Shown here: positions 4,301 to 56,472 of the stretch, piece by piece
Layout of the letters: every line of letters starts with the position of its first letter
Numbering within the stretch: the first letter of the stretch is position 1
Virus record (IMG/VR): IMGVR_UViG_3300043540_000091
Coordinates: 64,001 to 128,000 of that record
Direction: 5' to 3' (one strand)
DNA from: a virus
Length of the DNA stretch: 64,000 bases
Position numbers and translations under genes: made by a program
Notes under the pieces: model-generated
The model's database searches: none
Told to the model about the DNA's origin: nothing
The model's input: only the letters and a program-made list of their open reading frames with translations

Positions 4301-7300
4301 TGTGACAGGGAGCTGATGAACTTGACCGTATCTTCGTTATGCTTGCGCGTCTTGCCCTCAGCTCGCTCTTGAGCAAGCTTTGCCTCGAAGGTCTTGGCCA
4401 TCTCGACGACGGTCTTTGGCTCTGTAGAGTTGCTGAACTGAGTGGAGATGCCAGCGATCTCGGAAGATGACAGTTTGCCAGGAGACTTCACTGCACGAGC
4501 GATGAACTCCATGCCCTTGTCTGAGAGATTACCTTCCTGAGCCATCGTGACAAGGGTATTGAAGTCCTTGGAATCCATAACCTGACGCTCGAACGCGCTC
4601 TTGGTCTTCTCTCCTACCAGGTCCTTGCGGCTGAGAGCGTTGATCGCTCTGTACATAGACTCATTCTTGACCTGATCTGACGGGTAACTTCTCGAGGACA
4701 GATGATCTAGGACGTCCTTCGAGATCCTGTCCATGTCCTTGTCGGTAAGCTCTTTCACGTTTGACGGACTCGTGAATGCATTTCTGATGATGTTCGACAG
4801 GTCGTCGGGAGACTTATCGATAGACAAGTCCATCAGCTTGCGCAAGCGACTAGAATACTCGCTGAACGCGTTGTCTGACATGGAAGTAGAACGACCGCCA
4901 GTGTGGGCTTCTGGGTTTAGCAGGTACTGGTTGAGACTTCGAGAGATGTCGCTCACGTCATCAGGACTAAGGTCCGGCTTCGACAACCATCCGTCGAGGG
5001 CGGTTCTCTTGACGGCGTTGTTGGGTATGGCCAACACGTCTGCCAAGCTTCCAGTCTGAGCTATCTCTGATACCTTCTCGGGAGAGATCAGGTCCTTCTG
5101 CAGCGCGAGCTTGCGCAGCTGCGCTCCGGACTCACCAGGCATGTCAGCCAAGAAGTCCATGTTGACGCCGCCGGTGTGTTTCAAGGTCTGGAAGGCATCG
5201 CTTCCTATGCCGTAGTAGTTCTTGGTATTGTTCAGTAACTTGGCCCAGTTCCCAGCTACCTGATTGTCATCGTCGTTGGGTATGGTCGCCATACGATTGG
5301 CGATCTCATTCATTATACCCTGCGCTCGTTCCTTGCTGGCTTGGCCATTGTGAAGACTTTGACTCTGGCTTCTTACTCTCTGGCCGAACATCTTTGACGC
5401 GAGATCGTTTCTTCCAGTGGCGAGGGCGTGATCTATCATACCCTCGCGAGTTAGGATACTCTTGGAGACCGAATTCATGATATCTTCATCTGACAAGTGT
5501 CCCTGCATCTCTGCCGGAGTTCCGATCAGTTGCTTGGCAAGATTCAGATGAGATACGTCCAAAGAGTTCAGACGATGAACGGCGGCGTTCTGAGCCCGTG
5601 ACTCTCCCTCGTGATTGAATCCACCAAGGACAGCGTTGCCGAAGAGATCCGGTCGATGTTCTGATACGTTCTTGATGTTCTCAGCAAGAACCTCGTCGCG
5701 ATGTTCTGCAGGCAGCATCTTGAGTGCGCGGTCCCATATCTCGGCAGGTGCCTTCGTGTGAATGATGGACTTCGCGGCTTCTTGAGAGCCCGAGTTCAGG
5801 ATCTCTGAGTACCGTGCCTTCTGGTCTGCTTCAGGAAGTTGGTCGTAACGCTTCAGCTCATCGCCCTCCCCGATGGCATCCATCAGGTCCTTGTTCTTGG
5901 CGATATCATGGAAGGTATCGAGAGACAGGTTCTTGGATCTGAAGATGGGCGCGATCACATGCGCAGGCTCAAGATCTTTCGGCCTTCCGTGTCTGTCATA
6001 GATCTTGGGAGGCTTTGCTGCGTATTCTTTGGCCTTAAGATATGCGCTATCTAGGAACGAAGGATCGGCTTTCTTGAGATCGATGTGACTGGACAGATTC
6101 TGCATCATGGCTGGGTTGGACAAGACAGCTTCTTGCGCATTCTTGTCGCCAGATTGGGCAAGCTCAGCTACCGCTCGAATCAACCGGCTGTCATCGTCAT
6201 TGTGTTGCTCATGAAGAACATTGTACGGAGAAGCGTAGAACTCCTTGTTCTTGCCGATCTTCTTCTTGAAGGCCGTTGAGATGTCCTTGGCATGCTTTTC
6301 ACGTATCTCTGGAGACACACGCGAGTCCATTGCCATACTGAGCTTGCTGTGAAGTACTGTTTCTGGACGTTCCTTAGTCTTCTTGGCGATGTCTTCGAGA
6401 TCAGCGCCAGCATACTTCTGGTGCGCGGCCTTGAAGATCTCGTCCTGCTGTTCCTTCGGCATCTTGTCGAAGTGACTCTTGAAGTCATCGTCGTGATATA
6501 CTTCAGAGATCGACGTCTTGCCAGAAGAGAGCCTTTCTCGGACCTGCTGATCGGCAACTAGAGGATGCAGGCGAGCCGCGTCCTGGACAGTACGAGCCTT
6601 GCGTTTAAGAGCTTCCTGCACGACCGACATGTCTGCCTTGTCATGATTAAGCGCTTGCACGGCCACGTCTTGGTTCTTATGATTTACAATCTCCTTGAGC
6701 ACGTCCGGCGGTACCTGCTTGGCGGACAAGATGTTTCTTGCCGCGTCGGTACTCTTGTCGGAACCGTTCCATGACGCGCGAACATCAGACTCATCGGCAA
6801 GCTCATGGTGAATGGCATCTTGAGAACCCTTCTGGATGAGTGCCTTTACCTGTTCCTTGGTTATCGACGGGTTCCTTAGAAGATTCGAGATCTTTGACTT
6901 GTTATCATAGTCGTTCGGCTTTTTTACACGACGAATGAACGCGTCGATTGATTCCTTAGGAAGGTTCGGATGCTGAAGAGCTTCGCGTCTAGCGTCCTTG
7001 TTGGTAGCATACTTAGCAAGCAGAGCCGGATCGACGTTGTTGTGCTCGAGGATATCTCCGATCGCGTCGTGGCGGGAGTAGTCATGTTCCTTGGGAGTGG
7101 ATTCAAGCAACTGGTGGATCTTGTTGAGGTGTGCGCGTGACAGGTCCTCTCGCGCCCGTACCAGCCTACCAAGATGCGATGCGTTATCCGGAGTCGGTGA
7201 GTACTCGTCGACTCCATGGTACTTATTGGCATGGATCGAGTCAATGGTCCTGTCGAGAGTCTCCGGCGTGTGGCGCTTCGAGTTTATGAGGCCCTCGAGT

Positions 7301-7842
7301 CCGTACTCCCCGATGCCTTCCTGAGCTTCGGGATTCTGAGATCCTTCCTTCCAGTGCTGCATGTAATAGTCTGGAGGCAGCTGTTCGTAGGTGTGCGGGA
7401 TAGCTCCGGCCTTGAACGCCTTGTCAGACATGGTACGAAGCTCATCTTCGTTCATGATTCCAGAGTTCGCAAGATCTTCATGAGAAGAAGAGTTCGGATG
7501 GTCGGGATGGAAGGTCCGTGATAGATAGTCCTTCTTGATGTGAAGCGGAGTGTTCGGATGCTTCATCAAGTTGTCTGCCCATTCATAGCTGTACGGCTCT
7601 GCCTCGCCCGACTCATCGAGCGTATGGCTGTCCATCATGTGGTTGTACAACTTCTCGATGCTGGCAGATGACAAGTTCGGATGCTGCGTAAGCTCATCCA
7701 TGAGAGGCTCGTTCTCGAACTTCTCAGCGTCGGGCAAGGAGATGTACTTCTCGACATGAGAATGCAGAGTGTCAGCTGGCGTATCAGGTGCCAGATGCGG
7801 AGTGTCGACTGTATCTTCTACTTCATCATCATGGTCCGACAT
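1330..7842 (-). CDS. giant 2170-aa probable internal virion/polyvalent protein with helical HPNxP repeats and a C-terminal GNAT-like domain
   Basis: Repeated H-P/N-N-x-P/S units (HPNLSS, HPNTPL, HNNVDP, HPNLPK, NPSITK, NPSVPQ, HPNISE). C-terminal WSRVD..WVVEEYQSDF and ENAKAHGIKNLYM..IYEEGPRKYGFEE. Head-module location. Confidence 0.6.
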   Translation of the reverse strand: MSDHDDEVEDTVDTPHLAPDTPADTLHSHVEKYISLPDAEKFENEPLMDELTQHPNLSSASIEKLYNHMMDSHTLDESGEAEPYSYEWADNLMKHPNTPLHIKKDYLSRTFHPDHPNSSSHEDLANSGIMNEDELRTMSDKAFKAGAIPHTYEQLPPDYYMQHWKEGSQNPEAQEGIGEYGLEGLINSKRHTPETLDRTIDSIHANKYHGVDEYSPTPDNASHLGRLVRAREDLSRAHLNKIHQLLESTPKEHDYSRHDAIGDILEHNNVDPALLAKYATNKDARREALQHPNLPKESIDAFIRRVKKPNDYDNKSKISNLLRNPSITKEQVKALIQKGSQDAIHHELADESDVRASWNGSDKSTDAARNILSAKQVPPDVLKEIVNHKNQDVAVQALNHDKADMSVVQEALKRKARTVQDAARLHPLVADQQVRERLSSGKTSISEVYHDDDFKSHFDKMPKEQQDEIFKAAHQKYAGADLEDIAKKTKERPETVLHSKLSMAMDSRVSPEIREKHAKDISTAFKKKIGKNKEFYASPYNVLHEQHNDDDSRLIRAVAELAQSGDKNAQEAVLSNPAMMQNLSSHIDLKKADPSFLDSAYLKAKEYAAKPPKIYDRHGRPKDLEPAHVIAPIFRSKNLSLDTFHDIAKNKDLMDAIGEGDELKRYDQLPEADQKARYSEILNSGSQEAAKSIIHTKAPAEIWDRALKMLPAEHRDEVLAENIKNVSEHRPDLFGNAVLGGFNHEGESRAQNAAVHRLNSLDVSHLNLAKQLIGTPAEMQGHLSDEDIMNSVSKSILTREGMIDHALATGRNDLASKMFGQRVRSQSQSLHNGQASKERAQGIMNEIANRMATIPNDDDNQVAGNWAKLLNNTKNYYGIGSDAFQTLKHTGGVNMDFLADMPGESGAQLRKLALQKDLISPEKVSEIAQTGSLADVLAIPNNAVKRTALDGWLSKPDLSPDDVSDISRSLNQYLLNPEAHTGGRSTSMSDNAFSEYSSRLRKLMDLSIDKSPDDLSNIIRNAFTSPSNVKELTDKDMDRISKDVLDHLSSRSYPSDQVKNESMYRAINALSRKDLVGEKTKSAFERQVMDSKDFNTLVTMAQEGNLSDKGMEFIARAVKSPGKLSSSEIAGISTQFSNSTEPKTVVEMAKTFEAKLAQERAEGKTRKHNEDTVKFISSLSHTFNASTTSSEEDKVKNDFVVNYTKKAALNPAVALHANSLLYKMAVAQSHTDEERSIDLLASLPNDRAAYNQFNPLNMSSIVNNPRFMEMAQSGVKLEMLAKNASKLTGNNASILVSRAMTTPLPEGNAQLMITLNKNKYVQMEDSVKLGRSLTDAEFRDVAESVYNALEGNLVDVAHSRLNSVQDLLKDPNLAAPGAPHLGMEHREAILNKLKIFSNVVANSTFTSDLSGVGGKLEKIDQMVDVIHESVQKIAASLRDETAKLGYGDSVRYNHQAIKGIAENIASANIKLGRNQAMKTFDMLKEFHSLDEAAGKKLTAPEETFGILTNIVSKAEQLEDQDWKSMFQSRPDAMFALSKRSSIPKEALASVDLRGIEDSKTGEGSMHQAFMVESSQWMNKMSSDDRAAYGKQLMDMYVRMHVDGKVQGDAYQNSMKTAIKSMARHMTRGDVQDIMVGTKDHSIAQSLFKEAVTNGAGGEETLKMYVRDHKKIMGTDLFAISKDSGSYEGSNIANRLEPVIRSPHINEEVSGRVCAMFVTNPEAMEAAMNKMLENPSVPQSSVDRIADQVSTNAQANHARFSESIGMGLSSQLLKHPNISEARLAKVMSQSEKEYGAYITHEAPFNPAFVNPTHGGKLFRAQPVVTPKDVPNVDGSLAVKTLNVKSGDYEKMREVMGFIPAEGMSWVEFKRKYPQQEKNLPKSVKDVFMAANNKPVMPERFVEAARQLDDNASKYHITFSDWKSPLQRHRGEDQKPNLVVQVNNSEEKERELSKDPKLWALYQHLLMDANGVDAAENSIGLHPTTPHLVSWSRVDTDQDKGSWVVEEYQSDFAQKFRSNLNALIESMPEGSHINGQHITADEMKQYSKTIARHLDDWADASMQAVIENAKAHGIKNLYMHGAELRGYLSNSDYNREFWDNKNTKAKMSGFRKIYEEGPRKYGFEECDYTDYPRYSSSLLGELNASKLSTKCWVLKLNAPDQRPKRKKKPNLR
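1337..1344 (-). promoter_or_regulatory. putative late promoter box CCTAATCT
   Basis: One of six identical minus-strand copies seen directly upstream of structural, lysis or head-module genes. Confidence 0.55.
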
Positions 7843-8450
7843 TACTCATCTCCGTACTTCAGCCAGTACATCATCTTGCGAGTCCATTCCTTATCCTCGG
7901 CCTGATGAAGACGGGCATTCTCGATATCTTGGTCATACTTCTTGCTCGCCAGCTTCTGGTTACGCTCTCGCTCGGCCTGCTGCTTGTTGATCATGTCAAG
8001 AACACCTGAACTTAGACTGACGTTAACTGGTTTGGCCGGTGCTTGCTCTGCAAGAGGCGGCGTTGACACGATCGGGAGAGCTTCCTGGATGTCAGTCTTC
8101 CGTGCGACCTTGATGTCACCGCGCTTGATCGCTGCGAACAGCGCGTCCTTGGTCTCTTGATCGATCAGATCGCCGTTCAGCATGCAGGTATGGCCATCAG
8201 AGGTGATCTCAACCACGTCGCCATTGTCCATGACGTAGCGCAACAGGTTGACAGTTGCCTTCTTCGGCTGCTCGATGGTCAGGTGAGATGACTTCTGGAC
8301 GACCTGGATCATGCGCTGATAGCTATTCTGGAATAAGTCTGGGAGTTTGCCGTTGGTGTTATCGACGACGAAGTCCAGAACGCGACCATCCGTGCGGATC
8401 TCGGCCAACGGAACGTCAGAATAATCAGATTTTATGACAAAGATCTTCAT
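7842..8450 (-). CDS. hypothetical protein (202 aa)
   Basis: Translationally coupled to both neighbours (ATGA and TAATG overlaps). Confidence 0.75.
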   Translation of the reverse strand: MKIFVIKSDYSDVPLAEIRTDGRVLDFVVDNTNGKLPDLFQNSYQRMIQVVQKSSHLTIEQPKKATVNLLRYVMDNGDVVEITSDGHTCMLNGDLIDQETKDALFAAIKRGDIKVARKTDIQEALPIVSTPPLAEQAPAKPVNVSLSSGVLDMINKQQAERERNQKLASKKYDQDIENARLHQAEDKEWTRKMMYWLKYGDE

Positions 8451-10198
8451 ACTGCAGCCTTCTTCTTCTGTTCAGCATGCTCCGCATCGCGAGCTGCTCC
8501 AAAGGTTGGGCGGACTGCATTGTTCACGATGCTGCGCATGTGATCGATCGGCATGTCAGGCCTATCGGCGACCTTCTGGTACATCATGAGTCGGCCAACC
8601 GCGTGCTTTATGGTAATTGGATGATGCCCTTGATCCATCATCCTGCCAGCGAGTTTCTTCGGATCAATCCCCTTGATCCACTTGACTGCTTCCGGATGTA
8701 CCGGCTGACTGTCGCGCAGGTACCACGGCTTCATAGCTGGATCATAGTCGAACGAAGCGTCGTTGTCAATGTTTACCAGGTGTCCTTTAGGATGAATCAA
8801 CGTGTTACCGGAGTTCCGATCAGTGTCAGCGCCGAGGATACTGTCCATGATGGCCATTTTATGAACCGAACCGTCCTTGTTGGCGTTCTTCAAGACCGAG
8901 GCGATCTTCTCATCGGTCATGGTGTACGGAGTCTTAGCTCCGTCTATGATCTCCATGGCTTGATGATGCCGCTGAGATGCCTTATCGCCGTCTATTTCCT
9001 TAACTCCAGCAACAGGATGCTTGAAGTAGTTCGTGACAGGGACGTGCTTGCCCATGCCGAAGACGTCGTTGGCCAGCTCATAGTAGTGGGTTGAGTTTTC
9101 TGCGGCCTTGCTATGGTCAGGATGTTTTACCAGTACGTTCTGTCCGGCGTCGTTGCGATGCTTGGTGATGAGATTCGCGTAGTTCTCATGCCCTGGCGTA
9201 AAATCGGTGCCGCCGTGCTTACGCTTGGGATCAAAGTACAGCCCTTCCATCAGCTTCTTCTGTGCTTCTGACTGATTCTTGTTCGGACTGTGCGAAGCTC
9301 CGACGCGGATAAGCTTGATGGACGGCTTCGACTTCTTGAGCGCAAGCTCCTCGGCAAGATCCGTGAAGTGGTGGATGTAATCATCCGACACTTCCGGAAG
9401 AGCTGCCTTAAGAACTTCCTTCAACGGGCGCTTACGGTCCCAGTCGCGAACGATCGCCTTGACTCGGTTACGCTGGAATCCGGTGATATGTTCCTTGGTG
9501 AGCGCTGCGCCGCCGGTCAGCTGACCTGGCGCGACATTGCCCATACCGGCAGTGAGTGCCTTGTTCAGATCCTCGAGGGCCTTGTGCAGGTCCAGGACCG
9601 GATCATGAGGCATGAACGATTCATCCAGTACCGGCGATTCGAATTTCATAAGGTCTGCTATGTCCGAAGATATCTTCCGTATCGACTTTGCGACACTCTT
9701 CGTCTTAGGGTCATCATAAAGACCGGCAATGGCCATCTTGTTGCAGCTGCGGAGAGTGATGGCAACGCGACGGCCAACCGATTCCTTAAGAATATAGTCT
9801 TCACGTTCTAGAGTAGCTCCTTCTATGCTGAAGCCGACCAAAAGCCGCTCATCCTTTGCCGCGTAATAGCGGATCATAGCGGCGACGGCTACCGCACCTG
9901 GATGCTCTTGATCCTCAAACAACTCGCCTATGATATACACGAATGGTTTTTTCGAAAAGTCCCAGTAAGCTCTTTGTCGATCGTTCTCGCAATCTTTCTT
10001 TTCCATTATCTTCTTGGCATAGATAACAGCGCCGACGATATCTTCAGCTTTATTTGAATGCTCGAAGTTCAGAACGCCTTTACCATCTATAAGATCCGAG
10101 ATGTCGTGGTTCTCTACTATTAATAACTCACCGCTTGAGTCGATATGCTCGGATGTTGCTATGCCGTCTATCTTAAGATTCACGACGCGTACTCCCAC
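8447..10198 (-). CDS. prohead maturation protease fused to a C-terminal PI3/4-kinase/HipA-like kinase domain
   Basis: N-terminal IDGIATSEHIDSSGE..VLNFEH..VGFSIEG (herpes/HK97-fold prohead protease motifs). C-terminal VLVK..YYELANDVFGMGKHVPVT..DSILGADTDRNSGNTLI..LVNIDNDASF. Confidence 0.75.
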   Translation of the reverse strand: MGVRVVNLKIDGIATSEHIDSSGELLIVENHDISDLIDGKGVLNFEHSNKAEDIVGAVIYAKKIMEKKDCENDRQRAYWDFSKKPFVYIIGELFEDQEHPGAVAVAAMIRYYAAKDERLLVGFSIEGATLEREDYILKESVGRRVAITLRSCNKMAIAGLYDDPKTKSVAKSIRKISSDIADLMKFESPVLDESFMPHDPVLDLHKALEDLNKALTAGMGNVAPGQLTGGAALTKEHITGFQRNRVKAIVRDWDRKRPLKEVLKAALPEVSDDYIHHFTDLAEELALKKSKPSIKLIRVGASHSPNKNQSEAQKKLMEGLYFDPKRKHGGTDFTPGHENYANLITKHRNDAGQNVLVKHPDHSKAAENSTHYYELANDVFGMGKHVPVTNYFKHPVAGVKEIDGDKASQRHHQAMEIIDGAKTPYTMTDEKIASVLKNANKDGSVHKMAIMDSILGADTDRNSGNTLIHPKGHLVNIDNDASFDYDPAMKPWYLRDSQPVHPEAVKWIKGIDPKKLAGRMMDQGHHPITIKHAVGRLMMYQKVADRPDMPIDHMRSIVNNAVRPTFGAARDAEHAEQKKKAAV

Positions 10199-18016: not shown

Positions 18017-18346
18017 TTAGTGGGTAGCGCTATCGAAGACTCTCTTCTTGTTGACCTTGACTACGACTCTGGTCTCGTCCCATAGGATGGTCCTTACCCA
18101 TACGAGGATATTCTTGAACAGTTCCTTCTCGAACTTGGTTTCCTTGTACTTCGGAGACTCGCACTCGAGGGTGACGGCCTTGTTCTCCGGATCAACCTTG
18201 GCTACAACCCTGGCTATCTGCTTGCTTAGCCTGGGCCAGCTGATCAGCTGAAGCTTCTGGGCCTCATGGATGCCGCCGGTACGGACGGTCATCGCCTTCA
18301 GGTGCATGAGCTGTTCCATGACGTTCGTTTCATTGACGCCGCTCAT
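18017..18346 (-). CDS. hypothetical protein
   Basis: ATG at 18346 forms an ATGA overlap with the upstream nuclease stop. Confidence 0.65.
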   Translation of the reverse strand: MSGVNETNVMEQLMHLKAMTVRTGGIHEAQKLQLISWPRLSKQIARVVAKVDPENKAVTLECESPKYKETKFEKELFKNILVWVRTILWDETRVVVKVNKKRVFDSATH

Positions 18347-19416
18347 ATGTTGCCGTTCCTCAAGGTCGGGCACATGTCGTACACCTTCTTGAGAACTTCC
18401 TCTTGTATATCCTTCGGGACCTGATTGATCTCGAAGAACTCGCTCGAGAACTTGATGAACGATGCTGGCACGCCTTCCGACTCTTTCACCGACACTTTTA
18501 CCGATTCATCGGTATAGGTGGAGCTTGCCTTGATGCCTCCTGGCAGCTGGCGCTCCGTCTTCTTGACGAAGTCCTTCGTTCCTGTGATGTGAACGTAAAC
18601 TCGGTTGGCCTTGATCTTCTTGACGACCTCTTCAACCTTGGCGATCTGCTCGGCGGCGCTTGGACCTTCCTCGATCGACAACTTCGTGAACGGAGACCAG
18701 ACTTCCCACGGAGTCTCCTGGAAGTAGATCTCGCCGGTGCTCAAGGTCATCACATGGATACCCTTCACGGTACCAACATCTGACTTGTTGAGATGTCGTG
18801 GTGTTCCGAAGTAGTAGATGTTGTCACCAAGACGCTGGCAGAGATGAATATGACCAGAGAAGAACTGCAGGTCCTTCGGGTAGCGATCGATCTTGAAACC
18901 GTGCGGCGCGTAGTATCCTGACTCAAACTGCGCTCCGTCAAACTCAGCGTGGCAGAAGATCTTCCGTGCGCCCTTGTTGTAGAGTTCCATCACCTTTGAG
19001 TAGAACTTCTCCTCGTTCCGGATGAATCCAATGATTCCGACCGTGTCCGTGAGCATTGAACCTTCAGCTCCTGTAACGACAGTGTAGTCGCCGTGGACGT
19101 CCAAGGCGTTGGCGGTCTCCTGCTGGTTCATGTCATGATTGCCGACGATCGACTCAGACGGATAACCAAGGTTGACAAGGATGTACTTGTACGCCCAGGT
19201 CCAGAACTGTTCGATCAATACTTCCTTCACGCCGAACTTGTCGTACAGATCTCCCATGAAGATCGGTACGGCCTTCTTGCCGGTTGTGGCGGAGATATGA
19301 AGAACGCCTGCGACGAGCCACTTGATGAACGCAGTAGCCTCGGCTATGTTGCCCTCGTCTACGTGCATGTCACCTACCGGAACCAGGATCTCTGGCTTGA
19401 ATGGTCTCTCGATCAC
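18343..19416 (-). CDS. Mre11/SbcD (T4 gp47)-like metallophosphoesterase nuclease
   Basis: GDMH, MGDLYD, VGNHD, FCH, SGHIH, YFGTP motifs. Confidence 0.8.
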   Translation of the reverse strand: MIERPFKPEILVPVGDMHVDEGNIAEATAFIKWLVAGVLHISATTGKKAVPIFMGDLYDKFGVKEVLIEQFWTWAYKYILVNLGYPSESIVGNHDMNQQETANALDVHGDYTVVTGAEGSMLTDTVGIIGFIRNEEKFYSKVMELYNKGARKIFCHAEFDGAQFESGYYAPHGFKIDRYPKDLQFFSGHIHLCQRLGDNIYYFGTPRHLNKSDVGTVKGIHVMTLSTGEIYFQETPWEVWSPFTKLSIEEGPSAAEQIAKVEEVVKKIKANRVYVHITGTKDFVKKTERQLPGGIKASSTYTDESVKVSVKESEGVPASFIKFSSEFFEINQVPKDIQEEVLKKVYDMCPTLRNGNI

Positions 19417-24236: not shown

Positions 24237-26018
24237 ATGTCACTTTTCCACGTCAACAAGCCAAAGTCTGCACCGAAGGTCATGATCCCGTCGAGCGAAC
24301 GACTCACCAACGAGGTGGTCGACACCCTCAGCATGATGGCTTCGATGGCCGGACAGACCTTAGGTCCAGGTGGACGTCAGGTCCTGATCGAGCGTCAAGA
24401 GATAAACATGAAGCCGATCGTCACCAAGGACGGCGTTACGGTGATCAAGAACCTTGGATTCGACGATCCCGTCCGCCAGCTGATCCTCGAGGCTGCACGC
24501 GACGCGGCGATCCGTACCGCTAACGAGGCCGGAGATGGCACTACGACGGCCACGGTGCTGTCCAGCGCGATATGCCGGTCAACCATCGAGGTAGTCAAGA
24601 ATAACCCAAGGATGAGCCCACAGCGCATCGTACGCGAGATGCAGCGCATGGTCCCAGACATCATCCGCAAGATCGAGTCGTACCGCATCGACGTGACCGG
24701 CGAGAACTATACCAACGTCCTGACCAGAGTTGCGACACTGTCCGCCAACGGCGACGCTGAGCTGGCCGCCAAGATCATCGAAGGTAACGACATGGTCGGC
24801 GAAGAAGGTGACATGACCATCGTCGAGATGTCAGGACCTTCCAAGTACGTGCTCGAGCGCATCAGCGGCTACACCATCGAGCGCGGATACGAGGAGTCCT
24901 GCCGGACCTTCTCCAACGGCTTCATCAACGACAAGACTGGGACCATGGTCGTGCTGGAACGTCCCGTATTCCTGCTGTACGACGGCTTCGTGAACGACTT
25001 CATGCAGATCTACGACGCGCTTCAGAACCTGTACAAGGCCATGAAGGATGAGAAGCGCACGGAGATGAACGTGGTCATCGTCGCTCACGGCTTCTCGGAT
25101 CAGGCTCTAGGTGATCTTCACACCAACTGGAACCACTCTGCCTCGACTCTCAAGGCGTTCCCGATGATGACGCCCGAGAAGGCCATCCTGAACTGGCGCT
25201 CAACCTTCCTGTACGATCTTCAGGCCTATACTGGCACTCCCGTGTTCAATCCGGTTGACCGCCCTTTGGCCGACATGAACGCAACTGGGGTACTGGCCAT
25301 CAGTCGAGTCAAGCGATTCGAGTGCAGCCGGTTCAAGGCCATGGTATTCGCAGACGAGGACGAGACTTCGATCTCGATCCGCGTCGAAGAACTGAAGGAA
25401 CACCGCAAGAATCCAGAGTCAGACTACGAACTGAACGACCTCAACGTCCGCATCGGTAAGTTGACCAGCGGCATCGTCCGCCTCAACATCTACGGTCCTT
25501 CGGCTGGTGAGACTCGCGAGAAGCGCGACCGTGCCGAAGACGCTTGGATGGCGATCAAGGGCGCGATCAAGCACGGCGCGGTCCCTGGCGGAGGATTCGT
25601 CCTCGTCAAGCTGGCTGCGTTCCTTCAGGTCACAGCCAATGAGATGAAGCGTGGAGCAAGACAGTACGCCGTCCAGATCCTGGGAGAGGCATTGCTCGAG
25701 CCGGTTCGTCTCCTGTACCGCAACTACGGGTACAACAACGAAGAGATCGAGAGACATATCATCGACATGCTGGCAAACGAAGAGCAGACCTTCGACATCT
25801 CTGAAGAACTGTTCGTACCCAAAGCAGATCTGCTTGACAGCCTGCCTGCGGTAGCCGAAGCTATAAGAAACAGCGTGTCCATCTCGGCACTTCTCGGTAC
25901 GATCGGCGGCATCGTCGCCTTCCGGCGCGACAGTCAGACGGACAAGGAAGAAGAGAGACTGGTTCGCCAATTCGAGACCGCCATCGGCGAGAGAGGATCG
26001 TTGAATGCAGGCCAGTAG
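24237..26018 (+). CDS. groEL: phage-encoded GroEL-like chaperonin
   Basis: TLGPGGRQV, VTKDGVTV, AGDGTTTATVL, SANGD, RIGKLTSG, EKRDRAEDA, GAVPGGG. No GGM tail. Confidence 0.95.
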   Translation: MSLFHVNKPKSAPKVMIPSSERLTNEVVDTLSMMASMAGQTLGPGGRQVLIERQEINMKPIVTKDGVTVIKNLGFDDPVRQLILEAARDAAIRTANEAGDGTTTATVLSSAICRSTIEVVKNNPRMSPQRIVREMQRMVPDIIRKIESYRIDVTGENYTNVLTRVATLSANGDAELAAKIIEGNDMVGEEGDMTIVEMSGPSKYVLERISGYTIERGYEESCRTFSNGFINDKTGTMVVLERPVFLLYDGFVNDFMQIYDALQNLYKAMKDEKRTEMNVVIVAHGFSDQALGDLHTNWNHSASTLKAFPMMTPEKAILNWRSTFLYDLQAYTGTPVFNPVDRPLADMNATGVLAISRVKRFECSRFKAMVFADEDETSISIRVEELKEHRKNPESDYELNDLNVRIGKLTSGIVRLNIYGPSAGETREKRDRAEDAWMAIKGAIKHGAVPGGGFVLVKLAAFLQVTANEMKRGARQYAVQILGEALLEPVRLLYRNYGYNNEEIERHIIDMLANEEQTFDISEELFVPKADLLDSLPAVAEAIRNSVSISALLGTIGGIVAFRRDSQTDKEEERLVRQFETAIGERGSLNAGQ

Positions 26019-26268
26019 AGTTCTCCTAGCTCTATCCATGATCGTCAACATGTATCTGTCGTACTCACTGTACCGCGCGAATGAAACGAACGAGTTGATG
26101 TTCAGCGGACTTACGATGATAGCTAAGGCCGCGAAGACTGGCAAGGCAGAGGCATTCAAGTCCGGATGCATGTCGGCGGTCGTGAGCGCACTGCATCTTG
26201 ACACGGAAGATCCGCTCTATGAGCAATGGTGCTCGATGATGGGCGCTAAGTACTCAGTAGCGAAGTAG
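26005..26268 (+). CDS. small hypothetical protein with hydrophobic N-terminus
   Basis: Overlaps the groEL stop; RBS-like GAGG upstream. Confidence 0.55.
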   Translation: MQASRVLLALSMIVNMYLSYSLYRANETNELMFSGLTMIAKAAKTGKAEAFKSGCMSAVVSALHLDTEDPLYEQWCSMMGAKYSVAK

Positions 26269-26269
26269 T

Positions 26270-26548
26270 ATGGCATGGTTCACGTACCGGTGTCCGGAAC
26301 ACGGAGAGTTCAAGATGTCGCTCCAGAAGAGGGAGCAGACACAGGCATGTCCGACGTGCGGATCTCGGTCAGTACCAATGTTAAAAACCAGCGGAAGCGT
26401 GTCCATCGTCGAACGGCTGGACAACGGTATCATGGGCCGTGCAGTGGAACGTCTACACAACATCGAAGAGATCATGAACGATCGCGCGGACAAGCATTCA
26501 AAAGAGTTCGAGCAACGGAACGGCGGAGCAGGTGAAGACAATGATTGA
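26270..26548 (+). CDS. FmdB-like zinc-ribbon protein
   Basis: MAWFTYRCPEHG..ACPTCGS pattern. Confidence 0.7.
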   Translation: MAWFTYRCPEHGEFKMSLQKREQTQACPTCGSRSVPMLKTSGSVSIVERLDNGIMGRAVERLHNIEEIMNDRADKHSKEFEQRNGGAGEDND

Positions 26549-27539
26549 CGTCAGCTTCGGCATCCCTGGCTACATGCAAGAATACTGGGAACGCCACGAC
26601 CATGACGACTTCACTCATATCGGCTTGTCCAGCGGCATGCGGTACAACTTCGCCAAGACCAACCCGTACCTCGAGTCCTCTATCCTGCAGCTTCACGACG
26701 ATGTCGGAAACGCTGAGGTTGAAGGATACAGAGTCGTCATCGGTAACGGAGCTTCTCAGATCGTGTCTGCGGTAGCGTACGCAGCCCAGAAGATCAACCT
26801 GAATGAGATCCTTCTCGAAGCGCCGTACTGGGGTAGACTCCAGTTCCTGCTGAACTCCGGAGTACACTCGGCTGGCTTCATGGGACCGGCAGTCAAATCT
26901 CATAAAGCGCTAATCACCTCTCCGTGGTTCAAGTTCGCGGTCAGCCCGAACAATCCGGATGGTCGACTTCAAGAGCCGGAAGGTTCACTGCCGCACTTCC
27001 TGAGCGTGGTCGACATGTGCTACTACTGGCCTCAGTACGTTGACAAGGTGGAGAAGAAGGCTCACGACGTGATGATCTTCGGACTATCGAAGGCTACCGG
27101 CCATGCCGGTACTCGGCTTGGATGGGCTCTCGTAAAGGATCAGAACTTCGCGAGCTTGATGCGTGAATATATCGAAGAATCTACCTGCGGAGTGTCGAAC
27201 GACGCGCAGGAACGCGCCAGGACAATACTGTGGCACTCCCATCGCACGAATCATGCTCCGTTTCAGTTTGCAAAGACTGAACTCGCCGAGCGTTGGGAAG
27301 CGTTCGCTCAGGCTGCCAAGCAGTCGGGTAAGGTCAATGTACTCAACGCGAACGGAATGTTCGCCTGGTGCGAGTATACCGGCGGCGGGGAGTCGGCTGC
27401 AGACGAGATGCTGAAGGTGTACGGACTTAAGGTCATGCCTGGAACCTACTTCGGATCGTCACCTTCCAAGTTCAGGGTAAATCTTGGCTGTGACAAGGAA
27501 ATCTTTAACAAGATGCTTGGAGCACTCCGTGGAAGCTAG
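26541..27539 (+). CDS. PLP-dependent enzyme of the TAA1 (tryptophan aminotransferase)/alliinase family
   Basis: Colinear motifs G.P...QEYW, [61 protein letters not shown] (PLP lysine in SK), [16 protein letters not shown], FRVNL. Confidence 0.88.
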   Translation: [332 protein letters not shown]

Positions 27540-29226
27540 GCTGCTGTGGCTGGAGGTCGAGGGGTTCAGGTCGTTCAAGCGAAAGGTTCGCTTCAACTTT
27601 CCCGACGGCGATGCCGTCATACTTATCAATGGCCGCTGGGTTAACTCTTCGACCAGATCTGGCTCGGGAAAGACGAGCATCATAGAGGCGATTGCCTACC
27701 TATTAGACCTTACGGATGCGTCCCAGGCTTCGCTTAAGAACTGGGACTCCAAGAAGATGATCGTCCGTGGCGGCTTCCGTATCGGCACGTCAACGGTTCA
27801 AGTGACGAGAGATCCGAAACTGTCTCTCATCATAGACAACGAGCCGTACAACAGCCTTACCAAGGGCGCGAGCGCCAAGTTGGAGGAACTGCTTGGCGGG
27901 AACGCCGAGATCCTCAAATCCATCACGTATCGCAAGCAGCGCAAACCAGGCAAGATAATCAACGCGACCGACTCCAAGATCAAGGAGTTCTTGACCGAAC
28001 CTCTGAAGCTCGGTCCGGTTGAGGCTGCCGCAGAGCAGCTTACTCAGCAGGTCACCAAGCTCACTCAAGAGATCGAGCTTCTCAAGCGCGACGAGGCTAC
28101 CTTATCCGGATTTGTCGCTTCCGGCGGAGTATCCGAAGAGGAGGCTTCCAGGGCAAGGACGGCATACGATCAGGCCAAGGCGCAGTACGAGGCGATTGCT
28201 TCTCAAGCGAACGTGTCGCAGCAGCTGATGGCCGACTCGCAACGCCTATCAGAAGAGATCCGCGCGGTGAACAGCCTGATATCCCAGGTCAATCTTAAGA
28301 AGGCCGAGAACCAGCGCATCAAGATCAGTGTGGTCGACCTCAACGCAGAGATCGAAACCCTGAAGAGAAGTTCCTGTCCTACCTGCCGACGCGAGTGGGA
28401 CCAGGCGCAGGACCTTCTGAACCAGAAGAACGCTCAGGTAGACCAGCTGATCTTCCAGCTTCGATCCAACATCGAGTACATCGGTAACTCCGAGCCGATG
28501 ATTGCCAACTTACCGAATCTGCAGGCAATGCTACAGGACGTTCAACGGAAGATCGGAGAGATGTCAGCTCCGATGAGCATGGCGCAGCAGACTCTATCAG
28601 CCGCCACGTCCGCCCTGAACTCCCTCCAGTACAGACAGAGGACGTTCCTTGAGCAGTCGGGCAAGCTGGAACAGGTAAGGTCTAAGATCGTCACGAGCCA
28701 AAGAGAGCTTCTCATCGCGGAGACGTCGTCCAAACTGATTGGTCGCAGCGGATTCCTAGGGTCTATCTTTGACGAGATCCTGGCGGACATCGAGGTAAGA
28801 ACCAATGACATGCTGCAGCACTTCCCTAACGCTGAACAGTTCACGGTCCAGGTAAGCTCAACCAAGCTAGTCAAGACTAAAGGGACCACTAAGAAGGAGA
28901 TCTCCGTAACAATCTCCAGGGCAGGAACCGACGTTGGCTACGATGACCTGTCCGGCGGCCAGCAGTCGGCCATAGAACTTTGCACCGATCTCGCGTACGC
29001 CGAAGCGGTTCGCGCACGCTCCGGATGCGCTCCTCGCTGGACTTGTCTGGATGAGGTGATGGACGGTCTGGGCTCCTCAGAGAAGGCCGCCGTCGTTGAG
29101 ATGATCCGCAAGAGGATCAAAGGTCTTGTACTCATGATCGAACATGCTACCGAGATAAAGGAGTCGTTCGATCAGACCATAAATATCGAGTACGACGGAA
29201 GAGAGTCGTATGTCGCAAGCCTCTAG
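27529..29226 (+). CDS. Rad50/SbcC (T4 gp46)-like ABC ATPase
   Basis: EGFRSF, GSGKTS, coiled coil with CPTC zinc hook, LSGGQ, LDEVMDGL, IEH. Likely GTG start at 27529. Confidence 0.9.
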   Translation: MEARLLWLEVEGFRSFKRKVRFNFPDGDAVILINGRWVNSSTRSGSGKTSIIEAIAYLLDLTDASQASLKNWDSKKMIVRGGFRIGTSTVQVTRDPKLSLIIDNEPYNSLTKGASAKLEELLGGNAEILKSITYRKQRKPGKIINATDSKIKEFLTEPLKLGPVEAAAEQLTQQVTKLTQEIELLKRDEATLSGFVASGGVSEEEASRARTAYDQAKAQYEAIASQANVSQQLMADSQRLSEEIRAVNSLISQVNLKKAENQRIKISVVDLNAEIETLKRSSCPTCRREWDQAQDLLNQKNAQVDQLIFQLRSNIEYIGNSEPMIANLPNLQAMLQDVQRKIGEMSAPMSMAQQTLSAATSALNSLQYRQRTFLEQSGKLEQVRSKIVTSQRELLIAETSSKLIGRSGFLGSIFDEILADIEVRTNDMLQHFPNAEQFTVQVSSTKLVKTKGTTKKEISVTISRAGTDVGYDDLSGGQQSAIELCTDLAYAEAVRARSGCAPRWTCLDEVMDGLGSSEKAAVVEMIRKRIKGLVLMIEHATEIKESFDQTINIEYDGRESYVASL

Positions 29227-44179: not shown

Positions 44180-45030
44180 GCCTTGTTAAACGAATCCTCT
44201 ACTTCAAGATCAAGCTTGCCTTGGTAGCCGCAACGGTTTCCCTGGCAGCTACTACGTGCGCGATCAGCGTGCCGCGCACCTACAAGGCGTACATGCGCCA
44301 TAAGGTCGGCAGCCGAGTCGTTGCAGTGACGGTGACGGAGTTCTCAAAGGACAGGGACAACACCGGCGGCGGAACCGGATTCTTAGTCAAAGCACCAAGC
44401 GGTAAGACCTTCATCGTCACCAATCGTCACGTCTGCGATGATTCCAAAGACGGATCGATGTGGGTAACGGTAGACGGGATGACGCAGGATCGTAAGCTGA
44501 AGATCCTCAAGAAGTCGGATCAGGCAGACCTGTGCCTCATGGAACCTATTCCTGGCATCGAAGGTCTCGACATCGGTGATACCCCAGCAGTTGGCGACGA
44601 CGTCATCTATATAGGACACCCTAGACTTCAGGCTAGGACTTATGTTTCAGGCGAGCTGGTCGGTACCAAGATCGAAACTGTGATTCGCGGACAGGTCGGG
44701 AAGGAGATCTCAGAGGCCGAATGCAAGGCGTCCAAGGACTCCTACATCGCTGATACTTATGAGATCTACCTCATCCTTCGCAGGCTCGCGCGGGATGTTA
44801 CGCCGACACAATCTATCGAGAGCCTCTTCAAGACTTCCAACAAGGTTACGGTGTGTTACGAACGTGGGCAGGCCTACGTGACCACTCTCGATGTTTACGG
44901 TGGTGCTTCCGGAAGTCCTATGGTAAACGTATATGGAGAAGTCGTTGGCGTGATCTATGCTGGCGAACAGGGCCAGTGGGGTTACGCCGTAATCTTGGCT
45001 GAACTCAAACAGTTACTGAAAGGAAGGTAA
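44176..45030 (+). CDS. trypsin-like (S1) serine protease with N-terminal signal/anchor
   Basis: GGGTGF, VTNRHV, DLCL, GGASGSP triad motifs. Probable CTG start at 44176 (CTGA overlap, GGAG RBS). Confidence 0.88.
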   Translation: MSLVKRILYFKIKLALVAATVSLAATTCAISVPRTYKAYMRHKVGSRVVAVTVTEFSKDRDNTGGGTGFLVKAPSGKTFIVTNRHVCDDSKDGSMWVTVDGMTQDRKLKILKKSDQADLCLMEPIPGIEGLDIGDTPAVGDDVIYIGHPRLQARTYVSGELVGTKIETVIRGQVGKEISEAECKASKDSYIADTYEIYLILRRLARDVTPTQSIESLFKTSNKVTVCYERGQAYVTTLDVYGGASGSPMVNVYGEVVGVIYAGEQGQWGYAVILAELKQLLKGR

Positions 45031-50153: not shown

Positions 50154-50406
50154 GCTGCTTCTGCATGATGACCTTTATCACGATCGCGGTCGCAGATCCG
50201 TACTTCTCGATCTCTTTCGGCACGTACTTCTTCTCGAGATCCCTCAGGCGCTTGTCGACCTCAGGCTTCAGCCCTGACTGGATGTAAGCTCCGTCGAGAG
50301 ATGTTCGCGCGGCATCCATGTACCTGTCGTGGGACTTCTGGTCGTTGGACGTAGCTCCGTTGATGGCAAGCCCGAACGCCAGAAAGAATCCTGCTACTTG
50401 GCCCAT
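50131..50406 (-). CDS. small secreted/membrane hypothetical protein
   Basis: Hydrophobic N-terminus; follows the subtilase; ends in WSF. Confidence 0.5.
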   Translation of the reverse strand: MGQVAGFFLAFGLAINGATSNDQKSHDRYMDAARTSLDGAYIQSGLKPEVDKRLRDLEKKYVPKEIEKYGSATAIVIKVIMQKQLTLTWSF

Positions 50407-51215
50407 CCGCCAGCCTTCTTGACGAGTAACCTTCCGTAGTGGCTCTTCCTCATGATGTACAGGTGGTTGGCGAGCTTCCCAGTCATGGTCGCGGCGGCCT
50501 GTGAAGTTCCAGTCATATATCCGTAGAGTCCGCCAGGAAGAGTTGACAGGACGTCGTTACCGATCTCCTTGTACAGAAGGACCTTGGACTCATCGCTGCT
50601 GGTGTTCGACGATGGAAGCGTCTTCTCTCCATCGGCGTACGTCGCGGTCACTGCCACGATTCGAGAGTCGCACATGGCAGGCCAGTACTTGTGAGTGATG
50701 ACGTCGGACCTTTCGTTGCCAGCTGCCGCGACCACTATGATACCCTTGTCAAGAGCTTCCTTGAGAACCGCGCACTCCTCGTCGCTTCTGGCGATACCGC
50801 CGCCGGAGTAGTTGATGATGTCGACGTTCAGCTCGACGGCCTTCTTGAATGACTTGATCGTGTTCTTGAGGTTGTCCGCGTCGAGGCCCTTCGAGTTGTA
50901 GTACTTCATGATATACAGGCACGTCGGAGCCGTTCCAGCGAATTTCGTGACTATTCCGGCGATGTGAGTCCCGTGACCATGCTCGTCGCTCACGTCTAGG
51001 TTGTCGACTTCCTTACCGTCGACGACCTTCTTGGTTACGAAGTTCCAAGATCCGCATACCTTCGGTGTAAGCTTAAGCTGCTCCCAATTTGACTTCATGT
51101 CAATGCCGGTGTCAACGATTGCGATCTTGACCATATCTGGATCTTCGACCGGTTTCGGTTCGTCCGCTGCGAACGCGTGAGCGCCTATGAGCAGTGAAAG
51201 GATGATCTTCTTCAT
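50394..51215 (-). CDS. secreted subtilisin-like (S8) serine protease
   Basis: Signal MKKIILSLLIGAHAFA; IAIVDTGI, HGHGTHIAG, AAAGNE, GTSQAA motifs. Start reassigned to 51215. Confidence 0.92.
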   Translation of the reverse strand: MKKIILSLLIGAHAFAADEPKPVEDPDMVKIAIVDTGIDMKSNWEQLKLTPKVCGSWNFVTKKVVDGKEVDNLDVSDEHGHGTHIAGIVTKFAGTAPTCLYIMKYYNSKGLDADNLKNTIKSFKKAVELNVDIINYSGGGIARSDEECAVLKEALDKGIIVVAAAGNERSDVITHKYWPAMCDSRIVAVTATYADGEKTLPSSNTSSDESKVLLYKEIGNDVLSTLPGGLYGYMTGTSQAAATMTGKLANHLYIMRKSHYGRLLVKKAGGWAK

Positions 51216-51221
51216 GTATAT

Positions 51222-51280
51222 ATTGTCCACCATAAACAGAATGAAGTCAACTTGACACTCGACCAAGGTAGTGCTAAGAT
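51222..51280. promoter_or_regulatory. divergent sigma70-type promoters (minus TTGACT-17-GACAAT; plus TTGACA-17-TAAGAT)
   Basis: Both have 17-bp spacing. The minus-strand one is 6 nt from the subtilase ATG. Confidence 0.65.
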
Positions 51281-56426: not shown

Positions 56427-56472
56427 TTATGTCCAGTACGTGATGCGGAAGCGGTTTACTGGTGTTAGACAT
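56427..56472 (-). pseudogene. 46-bp remnant of a paralog of the 539-aa fibre gene (start fused to end)
   Basis: Reads MSNTSK.. (compare MSNPSR) and, in another frame, NRFRITYWT* (compare NRFRIVYWT*). Confidence 0.65.

Follow-up and report, generated by a model that had tools for sequence, protein, structure and literature searches.

A short-form enzyme of the TAA1/alliinase family encoded by an uncultured, distantly Mx1-like phage

The locus and the phage that carries it

The window examined here, i.e., the whole stretch of 64,000 nucleotides that was analysed, is part of a single virus record of 138.7 kb (IMG/VR record IMGVR_UViG_3300043540_000091, of which it covers positions 64,001 to 128,000), whose completeness was estimated by CheckV at 86%. 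Genes for terminase, portal and tail fibre occur within the window, and the phage origin of the enzyme gene described below, proposed in an earlier reading of the window without database searches (hereafter, the sequence-only reading), is borne out by them and by the single virus record in which they lie. The nearest relatives of the DnaE, GroEL and SbcC proteins were found in Myxococcus phage Mx1 (OR576727.2), with identities of 34%, 40% and 27%, respectively, and the record is that of an uncultured large tailed phage, distantly Mx1-like.

The first gene of a conserved block on the plus strand (24237 to 26018) encodes a GroEL-like chaperonin (phrog_5725, 3.6e-80; 40.3% identity to Mx1 GroEL). 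It is followed by the gene of a 92-aa Zn-ribbon protein (26270 to 26548, plus strand; Zn_ribbon_8, 7.2e-06, below the cut-off), an upstream neighbour kept in the group A phages and in Mx1, whose Mx1 homolog was matched with an E value of 1e-10 and whose C terminus is conserved in three related loci (L002, L004 and L040). The gene of interest comes next (26541 to 27539, plus strand), and its 3' end is overlapped by an SbcC/Rad50-like gene (27529 to 29226, plus strand; phrog_77, 7.9e-41), the downstream neighbour kept in synteny, for which GTG 27529, preceded 6 nt upstream by GGAG, is the most probable start codon. The corresponding block of Mx1 (GroEL, a 93-aa ORF homologous to the Zn-ribbon ORF, and a recombination endonuclease) presents the same backbone order; however, unlike in the record studied here, its Zn-ribbon ORF is followed directly by SbcC, and Mx1 gave no tblastn match to the TAA1-like protein. 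Since the Mx1 backbone has GroEL, the Zn-ribbon ORF and SbcC without this intervening gene, the enzyme gene is accessory to the early/replication operon in which this Mx1-like phage carries it.

The frame of the enzyme gene is open on the plus strand from 26532 or 26541 to 27539, encoding 335 amino acids from GTG 26532 or 332 amino acids from ATG 26541. The start region (26525 to 26548, plus strand), as read in the sequence, presents an SD-like stretch (GGAG...AGGTGA), of which AGGTGA lies 5 nt 5' of ATG 26541, and the frame opened by this ATG overlaps the TGA (26546 to 26548) that ends the upstream Zn-ribbon ORF, an arrangement consistent with translational coupling of the two genes. At the other end, it is the TAG at 27537 to 27539 that falls within the overlap with the SbcC/Rad50-like gene. 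The full-length 332-aa ORF that the sequence-only reading had placed in an operon with groEL, a zinc ribbon and rad50, overlapping its neighbours, was thus recovered at the same coordinates.

The enzyme gene has a GC content of 54.6% and a GC3 of 66.7%, and the neighbouring genes range from 54 to 57% and from 62 to 77%, respectively. A chimeric assembly, which the sequence-only reading had considered as a possible source of error, left no sign: positions 25500 to 28500 are spanned unbroken by a contig assembled independently from run X1 (probably that of the source sample), with one mismatch and no joints, and the gene occupies the equivalent place in contigs of separate records (L001 to L004, L023, L040, L042 and L056). 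The 332-aa gene is an intact, true full-length member of its family.

Family, fold and conserved residues

Members of the TAA1/alliinase family, which use PLP, the vitamin B6 cofactor, catalyse the first step of auxin synthesis in plants and the formation of allicin in garlic. The Pfam profile Alliinase_C (PF04864) matched the phage protein with 185.8 bits (E value of 1.4e-54; gathering cut-off of 22), residues 2 to 327 corresponding to profile positions 1 to 357 of 363, and this match is far beyond chance. The generic Aminotran_1_2 profile (PF00155) reached 57 bits on the same protein (E value of 2.4e-15), i.e., about 40 orders of magnitude worse, and no other gene of the PF00155 type occurs in the record. 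The EGF-like N-terminal domain of alliinases in the strict sense (alliin lyase; TAR3/TAR4-type architecture) was not detected by Pfam, with Alliinase_C alone present from residue 2, and the gene can thus be described as a short form. Among the NCBIfam equivalogs, none came near its cut-off (the best reached 38 bits versus the 350 required) and PatB C-S lyase gave a weak match (5.4e-4), while PHROGs returned only a partial match to the unnamed family phrog_5879 (1.6e-07).

The top PDB sequence matches obtained with HMMER were TAA1 (5.8e-34) and garlic alliinase (2.6e-25), and all the motif pairs that the sequence-only reading had quoted as collinear with TAA1 were found in the HMMER alignment to 3bwn_A. 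Furthermore, the structure predicted with AF2 (pLDDT of 93.8) retrieved with Foldseek TAA1 (3bwn; TM of 0.86, E value of 4e-24) and alliinase (TM of 0.85, E value of 1e-21), the next matches, headed by an AspAT (TM of 0.72, E value of 5e-14), being 8 to 10 orders of magnitude weaker. Generic class I/II aminotransferases (AspC, HisC, TyrB and YbdL; PF00155) share with the phage protein the PLP fold type I and the catalytic layout, but their Foldseek values (E value of about 1e-13, TM of about 0.7) are far from those of TAA1. The protein is an Alliinase_C/TAA1-family fold-type-I PLP enzyme, without a generic AspC/HisC identity, as had been anticipated, and TAA1 and alliinase are nearest by both sequence and fold.

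The best match in sequence and fold is represented by the Arabidopsis L-tryptophan:pyruvate aminotransferases TAA1, TAR1 and TAR2 (PDB 3bwn and 3bwo), which belong to the same Pfam family; TAA1 shares with the phage protein the collinear motifs and the lack of an EGF-like N-domain. However, the identity to TAA1 is 26 to 27% over the structural alignment, and the phage protein is about 60 aa shorter, falls in a clan separate from TAA1/TAR, differs at positions 97, 99, 100 and 272-273, is phage-borne and has no YUCCA partner. Garlic alliinase (alliin lyase; PDB 1lk9 and 2hor), a beta-lyase of a plant-specific substrate, has in common with it the family, the fold and five aligned PLP residues, but the identity is 22%, and the phage protein, devoid of the EGF-like domain, measures 332 aa, compared to 427 to 448 aa of the alliinase chains.

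The codons of the SK.TGHAG.R motif (S183 to R192) occupy positions 27087 to 27116 on the plus strand, with K184, the predicted PLP Schiff-base lysine, at 27090 to 27092. This residue aligns with K217 of TAA1, Lys217 being named as the TAA1 PLP lysine in PMC9231625. The other conserved cofactor/substrate residues are encoded between 26952 and 27476 (plus strand) and comprise N138 (26952 to 26954), D158 (27012 to 27014), Y161 (27021 to 27023) and R312 (27474 to 27476). In the comparison with alliinase, N138, D158, Y161, K184 and R192 align with N207, D225, Y228, K251 and R259, which, following the structural work on alliinase, we take to be cofactor ligands, whereas the C-terminal Arg (R312) is presumably carboxylate-binding. 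K184, N138, D158, Y161 and R312 are invariant in two alignments, of 27 relatives (A1) and of 63 diverse relatives (A2), and R192 is conserved in at least 90% of the latter. Likewise, the PLP-binding residues and R312 are conserved in both the short-form and the eukaryotic clans, N138, D158 and Y161 reaching at least 85% in each, and the eukaryotic clan has 54 positions with a conservation of at least 85%, of which 32 show the identical residue at an equal conservation in the short clan. The predicted PLP-binding residues are all retained in the phage protein.

Different from the eukaryotic clan, the short clan features W97 in place of Y, R99 in place of S, F100 in place of Y, and G272-M273 in place of P-A; at position 100, the protein studied here presents an L instead of the short-clan F. 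Some of the switched positions lie next to P95/W97; the alliinase residue aligned with W97 is Tyr165, which presumably stacks against the PLP ring. Because several positions are switched throughout the clan, the substrate pocket may differ from that of TAA1.

Distribution and phylogeny of the short-form clan

Scans with alignment-based queries identified the short-form clan on 31 IMG/VR viral contigs, which represent at least four unrelated phage architectures with a GC content ranging from 30 to 54% among the carrier groups, whereas a scan of viral contigs from a single protein query had returned no loci. The neighbours in groups A to C are GroEL/SbcC/DnaB/DnaE, class II RNR, PD-(D/E)XK nuclease and primase-helicase genes, while in group D the enzyme gene adjoins genes for M15 peptidase, terminase and portal; across the four groups compared, no neighbour family common to all was found. 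One pair of near-identical loci carries an adjacent TnpB/Cas12f-like gene. The closest protein matches (P0003, P0010 and P0012) lie on contigs of 168 to 170 kb. The clan enzymes are compact, about 300 to 350 aa, and some of them derive from a hot-spring sample; the gene is no rarity of one phage, being one among more than 100 clusters.

In a search by motif across 185,579 prokaryotic species genomes, a single short-form enzyme was detected, with a pattern that recovers 108 of the 155 short-clan rows and 54 of the 78 long-clan rows of the tree; since this sensitivity is partial, rarer or divergent cellular copies may escape the scan. When genome contigs were scanned with the A1 patterns, 41 stretches matched, none of which was a relative. 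Neither a megablast match to the locus nor a tblastn match to the protein was obtained among 50,697 phage records, including Mx1, and no cultured carrier is known. The short-form clan has thus been seen almost exclusively on phage contigs, and full-text searches of the main articles yielded no published report of a phage or viral PF04864 or TAA1-like gene.

The tree was computed with FastTree on 233 rows, 155 of the short-form clan and 78 of the eukaryotic clan, after leaving out 26 of the 249 proteins of the P set (23 named plant proteins, to thin the plants, and 3 shorter than 250 aa) and adding 10 proteins from viral loci. The short-form clan, which includes the window protein, is split from the eukaryotic TAA/TAR/alliinase clan with a support of 94; all plant sequences fall inside the eukaryotic clan, and the window protein lies outside the land-plant TAA clade. 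A conserved N-terminal M.EQT.T extension, found in 15 of the 155 short-clan rows and in none of the 78 long-clan rows, was considered as a targeting signal and rejected, as it corresponds to the +1 frame of the C terminus of the upstream Zn-ribbon gene and represents an ORF-calling artefact. Many relatives also carry a conserved C-terminal GSKT extension.

The identity of the window protein to the plant proteins listed is 30 to 35%, and that of the phage clan to plant proteins is 31 to 35%. Where the origin of auxin biosynthesis has been debated, bacterial and archaeal matches of only 25% identity were cited, and such sequences were used to root the tree (PMC4754409). When we rooted the tree with five class-I aminotransferases from G001, the outgroups were not monophyletic and the basal supports ranged from 0 to 65; this outgroup rooting therefore supports no claim on origin or donor. 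The suggestion of the sequence-only reading that the gene could link the family to a prokaryotic or viral origin is therefore retained in part: the 31 to 35% identity to plants exceeds the published 25%, but the phage sequences form a separate clan and the root was not recovered. It might be hypothesized that the short clan, mainly virus-borne, comprises the nearest non-eukaryotic kin of TAA/TAR/alliinase and marks a phage/bacteria-eukaryote route of this family of plants and protists, with its carriers (possibly with Bdellovibrionota/Myxococcota-type hosts) making indole-3-pyruvate or another aromatic 2-oxo acid as an auxin precursor or signal; taken as a whole, we regard this scenario as improbable.

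Proposed activity and its alternatives

In the whole 138.7-kb record, 86% complete, we found no match to YUCCA-like flavin monooxygenases (PF13738 and PF00743) or IpdC-like TPP decarboxylases (PF02776), the partners of the aminotransferase in the plant and the microbial IPyA pathway, respectively, the controls for PF13738, PF00743 and PF02776 being positive in 14/14, 9/14 and 14/14 genomes, respectively; the absence of both genes that had been noticed in the window thus extends to the entire record. A gene of the thymidylate-synthase type/dUMP hydroxymethylase (PF00303) is likewise absent from the record at this completeness. Since the record is only 86% complete, a partner gene could sit in the missing part. 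A host enzyme could stand in for the YUCCA/IpdC partner.

With moderate confidence, we suggest that the compact phage Alliinase_C/TAA1-family enzyme functions in infected cells as a stand-alone aminotransferase, its substrates being free amino acids that are probably aromatic or bulky. The reaction type, the substrate, the dimer and the physiological role that we infer are as follows. The enzyme would be a homodimer, with PLP held as an internal aldimine on K184, as in class-I aminotransferases; an incoming free L-amino acid would take the place of the lysine and leave as its 2-oxo acid, and the amino group would then pass, reversibly, to pyruvate or another 2-oxo acid. The substrate would probably be aromatic or otherwise bulky, by analogy with the promiscuous TAA1, and the candidate reactions include the conversion of Trp to indole-3-pyruvate; both the reversibility and the promiscuity of TAA1 are documented (PMC9231625 and PMC9309667). 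As the gene is not accompanied by any pathway partner, the enzyme would act alone on the host amino-acid/oxo-acid pool during infection, a view supported by the different neighbourhoods in the four phage groups and by the absence of PF13738, PF00743, PF02776 and PF00303. It counts against such a role in the amino-acid pool that it does not explain the repeated siting of the gene among DNA-metabolism genes.

The reaction type cannot be deduced from the sequence alone, because the same Pfam family includes true C-S beta-lyases, the alliinases. Inside infected cells, a lyase of the alliinase or MalY/PatB type would release pyruvate, ammonia and a reactive sulfur species from cystine, cystathionine or an S-substituted cysteine (sulfoxide), and the family and fold shared with garlic alliinase (TM of 0.85, E value of 1e-21; sequence match of 2.6e-25), the retained counterparts of alliinase N207, D225, Y228, K251 and R259, and the weakly matching PatB C-S lyase entry of NCBIfam (5.4e-4) would fit this activity. 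We nevertheless consider it unlikely, as TAA1 outscores alliinase in both sequence and fold and the protein consists of Alliinase_C alone, from profile position 1, without the N-terminal EGF-like domain. To our knowledge, no lyase substrates of this kind are known in prokaryotic hosts.

Whichever the chemistry, the enzyme could serve host takeover or counter-defence, destroying or diverting a metabolite derived from host amino acids, e.g., by depleting Trp/indole or eliminating a precursor of signalling or defence, instead of contributing to phage biosynthesis. The insertion of its accessory gene into a conserved backbone, missing in Mx1, recalls many host-interaction genes, and the spread over unrelated phage groups with GC contents of 30 to 54% and the lack of a pathway partner in the record point in the same direction; yet no defence-related neighbour recurs, the TnpB/Cas12f-like gene being confined to one near-identical pair of loci, and the mechanism would still be that of an aminotransferase or a lyase, differing from the best explanation in purpose alone. 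We regard this role as quite unlikely. The siting among replication genes would be accounted for by a role in phage nucleotide or DNA modification, with the enzyme providing or remodelling the amine or keto group of an amino acid linked to a base. Replication and nucleotide-metabolism genes do surround the gene in groups A to C, and phage DNA hypermodification pathways employ PLP enzymes (PMC8989533). The PLP enzymes described there, M6 gp52 and ViI gp226, resemble the present case in being phage-borne and near DNA-metabolism genes, but they are TrpB-like decarboxylases modelled on the tryptophan-synthase-beta fold and occur with a 5-hmdU kinase (5-HMUDK), aGPT-Pplase and dUMP hydroxymethylase. 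The fold found here is different, PF00303 is absent from the record, the group D gene adjoins M15 peptidase, terminase and portal genes, and no neighbour family is common to all groups; a nucleotide-modification role is thus disfavoured and, in our judgement, highly improbable.

The short clan adds a new class to the auxiliary metabolic genes of phages, and its products, with an identity of 31 to 35% to plant TAAs, provide much closer non-eukaryotic sequences for rooting the TAA tree. Moreover, the compact clan enzymes offer material on how, within this fold, the chemistry of aminotransferases is set apart from that of C-S lyases. Were indole-3-pyruvate the product of the aminotransferase proposed here, phages would join the producers of auxin precursors.

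Family assignment and cofactor pocket

The TAA1-like open reading frame (26532/26541 to 27539, plus strand) encodes a protein of 332 aa, which Pfam assigns to Alliinase_C (E 1.4e-54, 185.8 bits with a cut-off of 22, residues 2 to 327), far ahead of Aminotran_1_2 (just 2.4e-15). NCBIfam returned 18 weak aminotransferase-type matches, none near the cut-off (best 38 bits versus 350), and PHROGs gave no family except for a partial match to one unnamed family. The PDB sequence search yielded three distinct matches only, TAA1 (5.8e-34) plus two entries for garlic alliinase (near 3e-25), and the five TAA1 motif pairs given in the sequence-only reading all recur in the same order when HMMER aligns the protein to PDB chain 3bwn_A. 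Furthermore, the AlphaFold2 model built from 27 relatives (pLDDT 93.8, pTM 0.92) retrieved TAA1 first (TM 0.86, E 4e-24) and alliinase second (TM 0.85, E 1e-21) in Foldseek, with ordinary class-I aminotransferases 8 to 10 orders of magnitude weaker (E about 5e-14, TM about 0.7). Given the Alliinase_C match and the sequence and fold ranks of TAA1 and alliinase, Pfam, NCBIfam, PDB and Foldseek all speak against its being one of the ordinary bacterial class I/II aminotransferases, and the proposed homology to the TAA1/alliinase family is supported.

Lys217, the PLP lysine of TAA1 according to an excerpt of PMC9231625, aligned with K184 of the window protein (HMMER). In 63 diverse relatives of the compact branch that holds this protein (the short-form clan), G7, H52, G70, P136, N138, P139, D158, Y161, W163, K184, G194, R251, G272 and R312 are invariant. 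K251 of garlic alliinase also aligned with K184, and its cofactor-binding residues N207, D225, Y228 and R259 correspond to N138, D158, Y161 and R192. Judged from these residues, the enzyme looks catalytically competent. The eukaryotic TAA/TAR/alliinase branch (the long-form clan) has 54 positions conserved at 85% or more, and 32 of them, including all cofactor ligands, keep the same residue at equal conservation in the short-form clan, which argues for the same basic chemistry. However, clan-wide switches (short versus eukaryotic) occur at W97 versus Y, R99 versus S, G272-M273 versus P-A, and F100 (L in the window protein) versus Y. Since W97 aligns with alliinase Tyr165, presumably the residue stacking on the PLP ring, these switches indicate that the substrate should not be copied from TAA1.

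Phage backbone and gene neighborhood

The carrier of the gene is a phage. The assembly is a virus record made up of a single contig of 138,678 bases (86% complete by CheckV), and the window encodes terminase large subunit, portal, tail-fibre proteins, SbcD, DNA helicase, DnaB-like helicase, GroEL, SbcC, RuvC-like resolvase, exonuclease, DnaE-type polymerase, RecA-like protein, Toprim protein, dNMP kinase and two serine proteases (a trypsin-like peptidase, 44221-45030, plus strand, and an S8 subtilase, 50394-51266, minus strand). The unrelated viral contig L033 likewise has a subtilase gene (7184-7936), placed immediately upstream of its TAA1-like gene. Two adjacent large proteins (54499-56388 and 56472-59021, both minus strand) share an N-terminal segment (residues about 77 to 190) matching the "head decoration" family phrog_2647, and the second runs on into tail-fibre or collar domains.

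As the sequence-only reading had described, the gene sits in an operon with overlapping neighbors, downstream of GroEL. An SD-like AGGTGA precedes ATG 26541, and at that point the upstream 92-aa Zn-ribbon ORF (26270-26548, plus strand) has not yet reached its TGA stop (26546-26548); the TAG (27537-27539) is overlapped by the SbcC/Rad50-like gene (27529-29226, plus strand; likely start GTG 27529, with GGAG 6 nt upstream). The SbcD-like gene (18343-19416, minus strand; phrog_100, 8.8e-23) and the SbcC-like gene are not adjacent but separated by about 8 kb, on opposite strands.

Among named phages, Myxococcus phage Mx1 comes closest (DnaE 34% over 95% of the query, GroEL 40%, SbcC 27%). In it, GroEL, a 93-aa ORF homologous to the Zn-ribbon protein (E 1e-10) and a recombination endonuclease follow each other with nothing between; thus, the TAA1-like gene is an accessory gene in a conserved backbone, to which the Zn-ribbon protein belongs rather than to the TAA1-like gene. 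Zn-ribbon homologues occur in the related contigs L002 (9730-10005), L004 (9736-9999) and L040 (1343-1591), and in the Mx1 locus L092 (6833-7114, minus strand). The C-terminal stretch of this protein (around ...VERLHNIEEIMN.RADKH...) is very strongly conserved, being kept from the window to contigs with 33 to 51% GC and recognizable in Mx1. Many database relatives (P0002, P0003, P0005, P0007, P0008, P0010, P0011, P0013, P0015, P0019, P0021, P0023, P0024 and P0121; also L004 9941-9999) share an N-terminal extension, M.EQT.T..., that is in fact the +1 frame of the conserved 3' end of the Zn-ribbon gene, so those ORFs have been called too long; the extension reveals that they have the same upstream neighbor.

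A chimeric assembly is rejected. A separately assembled contig of run X1, a metagenome labelled hot springs and possibly the source sample, spans 25500-28500 unbroken, free of joints and with a single mismatch (T>C at 26863); the same gene occupies the same position in viral contigs L001-L004 and L023 and metagenome contigs L040, L042 and L056; and its GC and GC3 are in line with those of its neighbors. The mismatch (C in X1, T in the window) falls in a second codon position (V108A), and most close relatives have A in that column.

Distribution and phylogeny

Of 2346 candidates in a word-indexed search, 1024 proteins were listed at E <= 0.001; the closest among the matches listed were unnamed metagenomic proteins (36 to 64% identity, several on 168- to 171-kb contigs), followed by plant TAA/TAR proteins (30 to 35%). 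Exhaustive searching of 1.84 billion representatives gave 882 proteins at E <= 1e-3, 510 at <= 1e-10 and 111 at <= 1e-30. Alignment-based scans of IMG/VR (14 + 26 loci) gave 31 distinct viral contigs with 30 to 50% GC, in at least four architectures by neighbor clustering. In group A (the window, L001-L004 and L023), the order GroEL, Zn-ribbon, TAA1-like gene, SbcC recurs. Group B features class II ribonucleotide reductase, DUF3310, M78-type peptidase, PD-(D/E)XK nuclease and primase-helicase; in group C, the gene is near a DnaB-like helicase; and in group D, terminase large subunit and a P22-like portal come after an M15 peptidase that is encoded on the opposite strand. This clustering found no neighbor family common to all groups. 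Viral contigs L035 and L036, which are nearly identical, have a TnpB/Cas12f-like gene (9075-10160; Cas12f1-like TNB domain, 4.6e-16) immediately downstream of their TAA1-like gene, a hint that the locus is mobile. GenBank phage records held no homologue, and a literature search of main texts found no report of a phage or viral family member.

Patterns derived from the alignment with 27 relatives retrieved no relative from GTDB species genomes. Our own motif pattern (sensitivity 108 of 155 short-clan rows) matched one stretch in 185,579 species genomes, on the 8.8-kb contig L039 of a Bdellovibrionales MAG, the sole cellular-looking carrier found (gene at 6660-7700, minus strand; cellular-looking neighbors, namely GDPD and a beta-helix protein). 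The encoded protein shares 31% identity with the window protein and 74% with P0069 from another Bdellovibrionia MAG; it and P0069 branch deeply together and carry a YYWPHY motif resembling that of plants. The MAG with L039 was the only one of 301 genomes from that class with PF04864, which was absent from all 14 control genomes. Metagenome contig L045 carries a relative (35% identity over residues 42 to 326) beside integrase and transposase genes. On the evidence gathered, phages are overwhelmingly the carriers of the short form, and Bdellovibrionia account for a small branch. Weak hints at the host come from the group A backbone, nearest to a Myxococcus phage, the group D terminase, whose closest match (30%) comes from a Silvanigrella aquatica phage, and the cellular homologues, seen in Bdellovibrionia MAGs only.

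The FastTree phylogeny (233 rows) splits with support 94 into the long-form clan (78 rows, 370 to 590 aa) and the short-form clan (155 rows, 290 to 375 aa plus two of 435 to 441 aa). The former contains all named plant proteins, protist sequences (Tetraselmis, Stenamoeba, Picozoa and MMETSP), and one protein whose label names a Bacillota MAG as its source; in the latter are the window protein, all ten proteins from viral loci, which are spread through the clan, and a few MAG-labelled proteins. The window protein thus does not fall within the plant TAA clade. In a reduced tree (91 rows, five class-I aminotransferases as outgroup), eukaryotic sequences stay together, the outgroups are not monophyletic, with four of five beside the eukaryotic clan (SH-aLRT 86), and supports at basal short-clan nodes are 0 to 65. 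From these trees, the phage genes are neither recent captures from plants nor, demonstrably, ancestors of the plant genes. An excerpt of PMC9309667 places the Trp-aminotransferase clade "almost exclusively in plants", and one of PMC10015382 describes two plant clades and algal homologues; PMC4754409 cites closest non-plant eukaryote homologues at 30 to 31% identity, and bacterial and archaeal ones at 25% (E 2e-8 and 9e-7), and argues that rooting the tree requires such sequences.

Possible role

The record (86% complete) lacks genes of the Pyr_redox_3, FMO-like, TPP_enzyme_N and Thymidylat_synt types, and PF00155 is represented in it by this gene alone. The enzyme might act as a C-S lyase, deplete a metabolite or take part in DNA modification; against the last, the known phage hypermodification PLP enzymes have another fold and are accompanied by a defined gene set, according to an excerpt of PMC8989533. 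TAA1 works reversibly and accepts various aromatic amino acids (excerpts of PMC9231625 and PMC9309667). Because of the shared ligands, the lack of partner genes in the record, the contrast with hypermodification enzymes and these properties of TAA1, we favor a stand-alone reversible aminotransferase, which would work on free amino acids and oxo acids from the pool of the host.

The observation of a TAA1/alliinase-family gene in this phage is thus borne out by Pfam, PDB and Foldseek. The gene adds a new, compact, mainly viral form to a known enzyme family; its interest, real though moderate, would grow with a substrate in hand.
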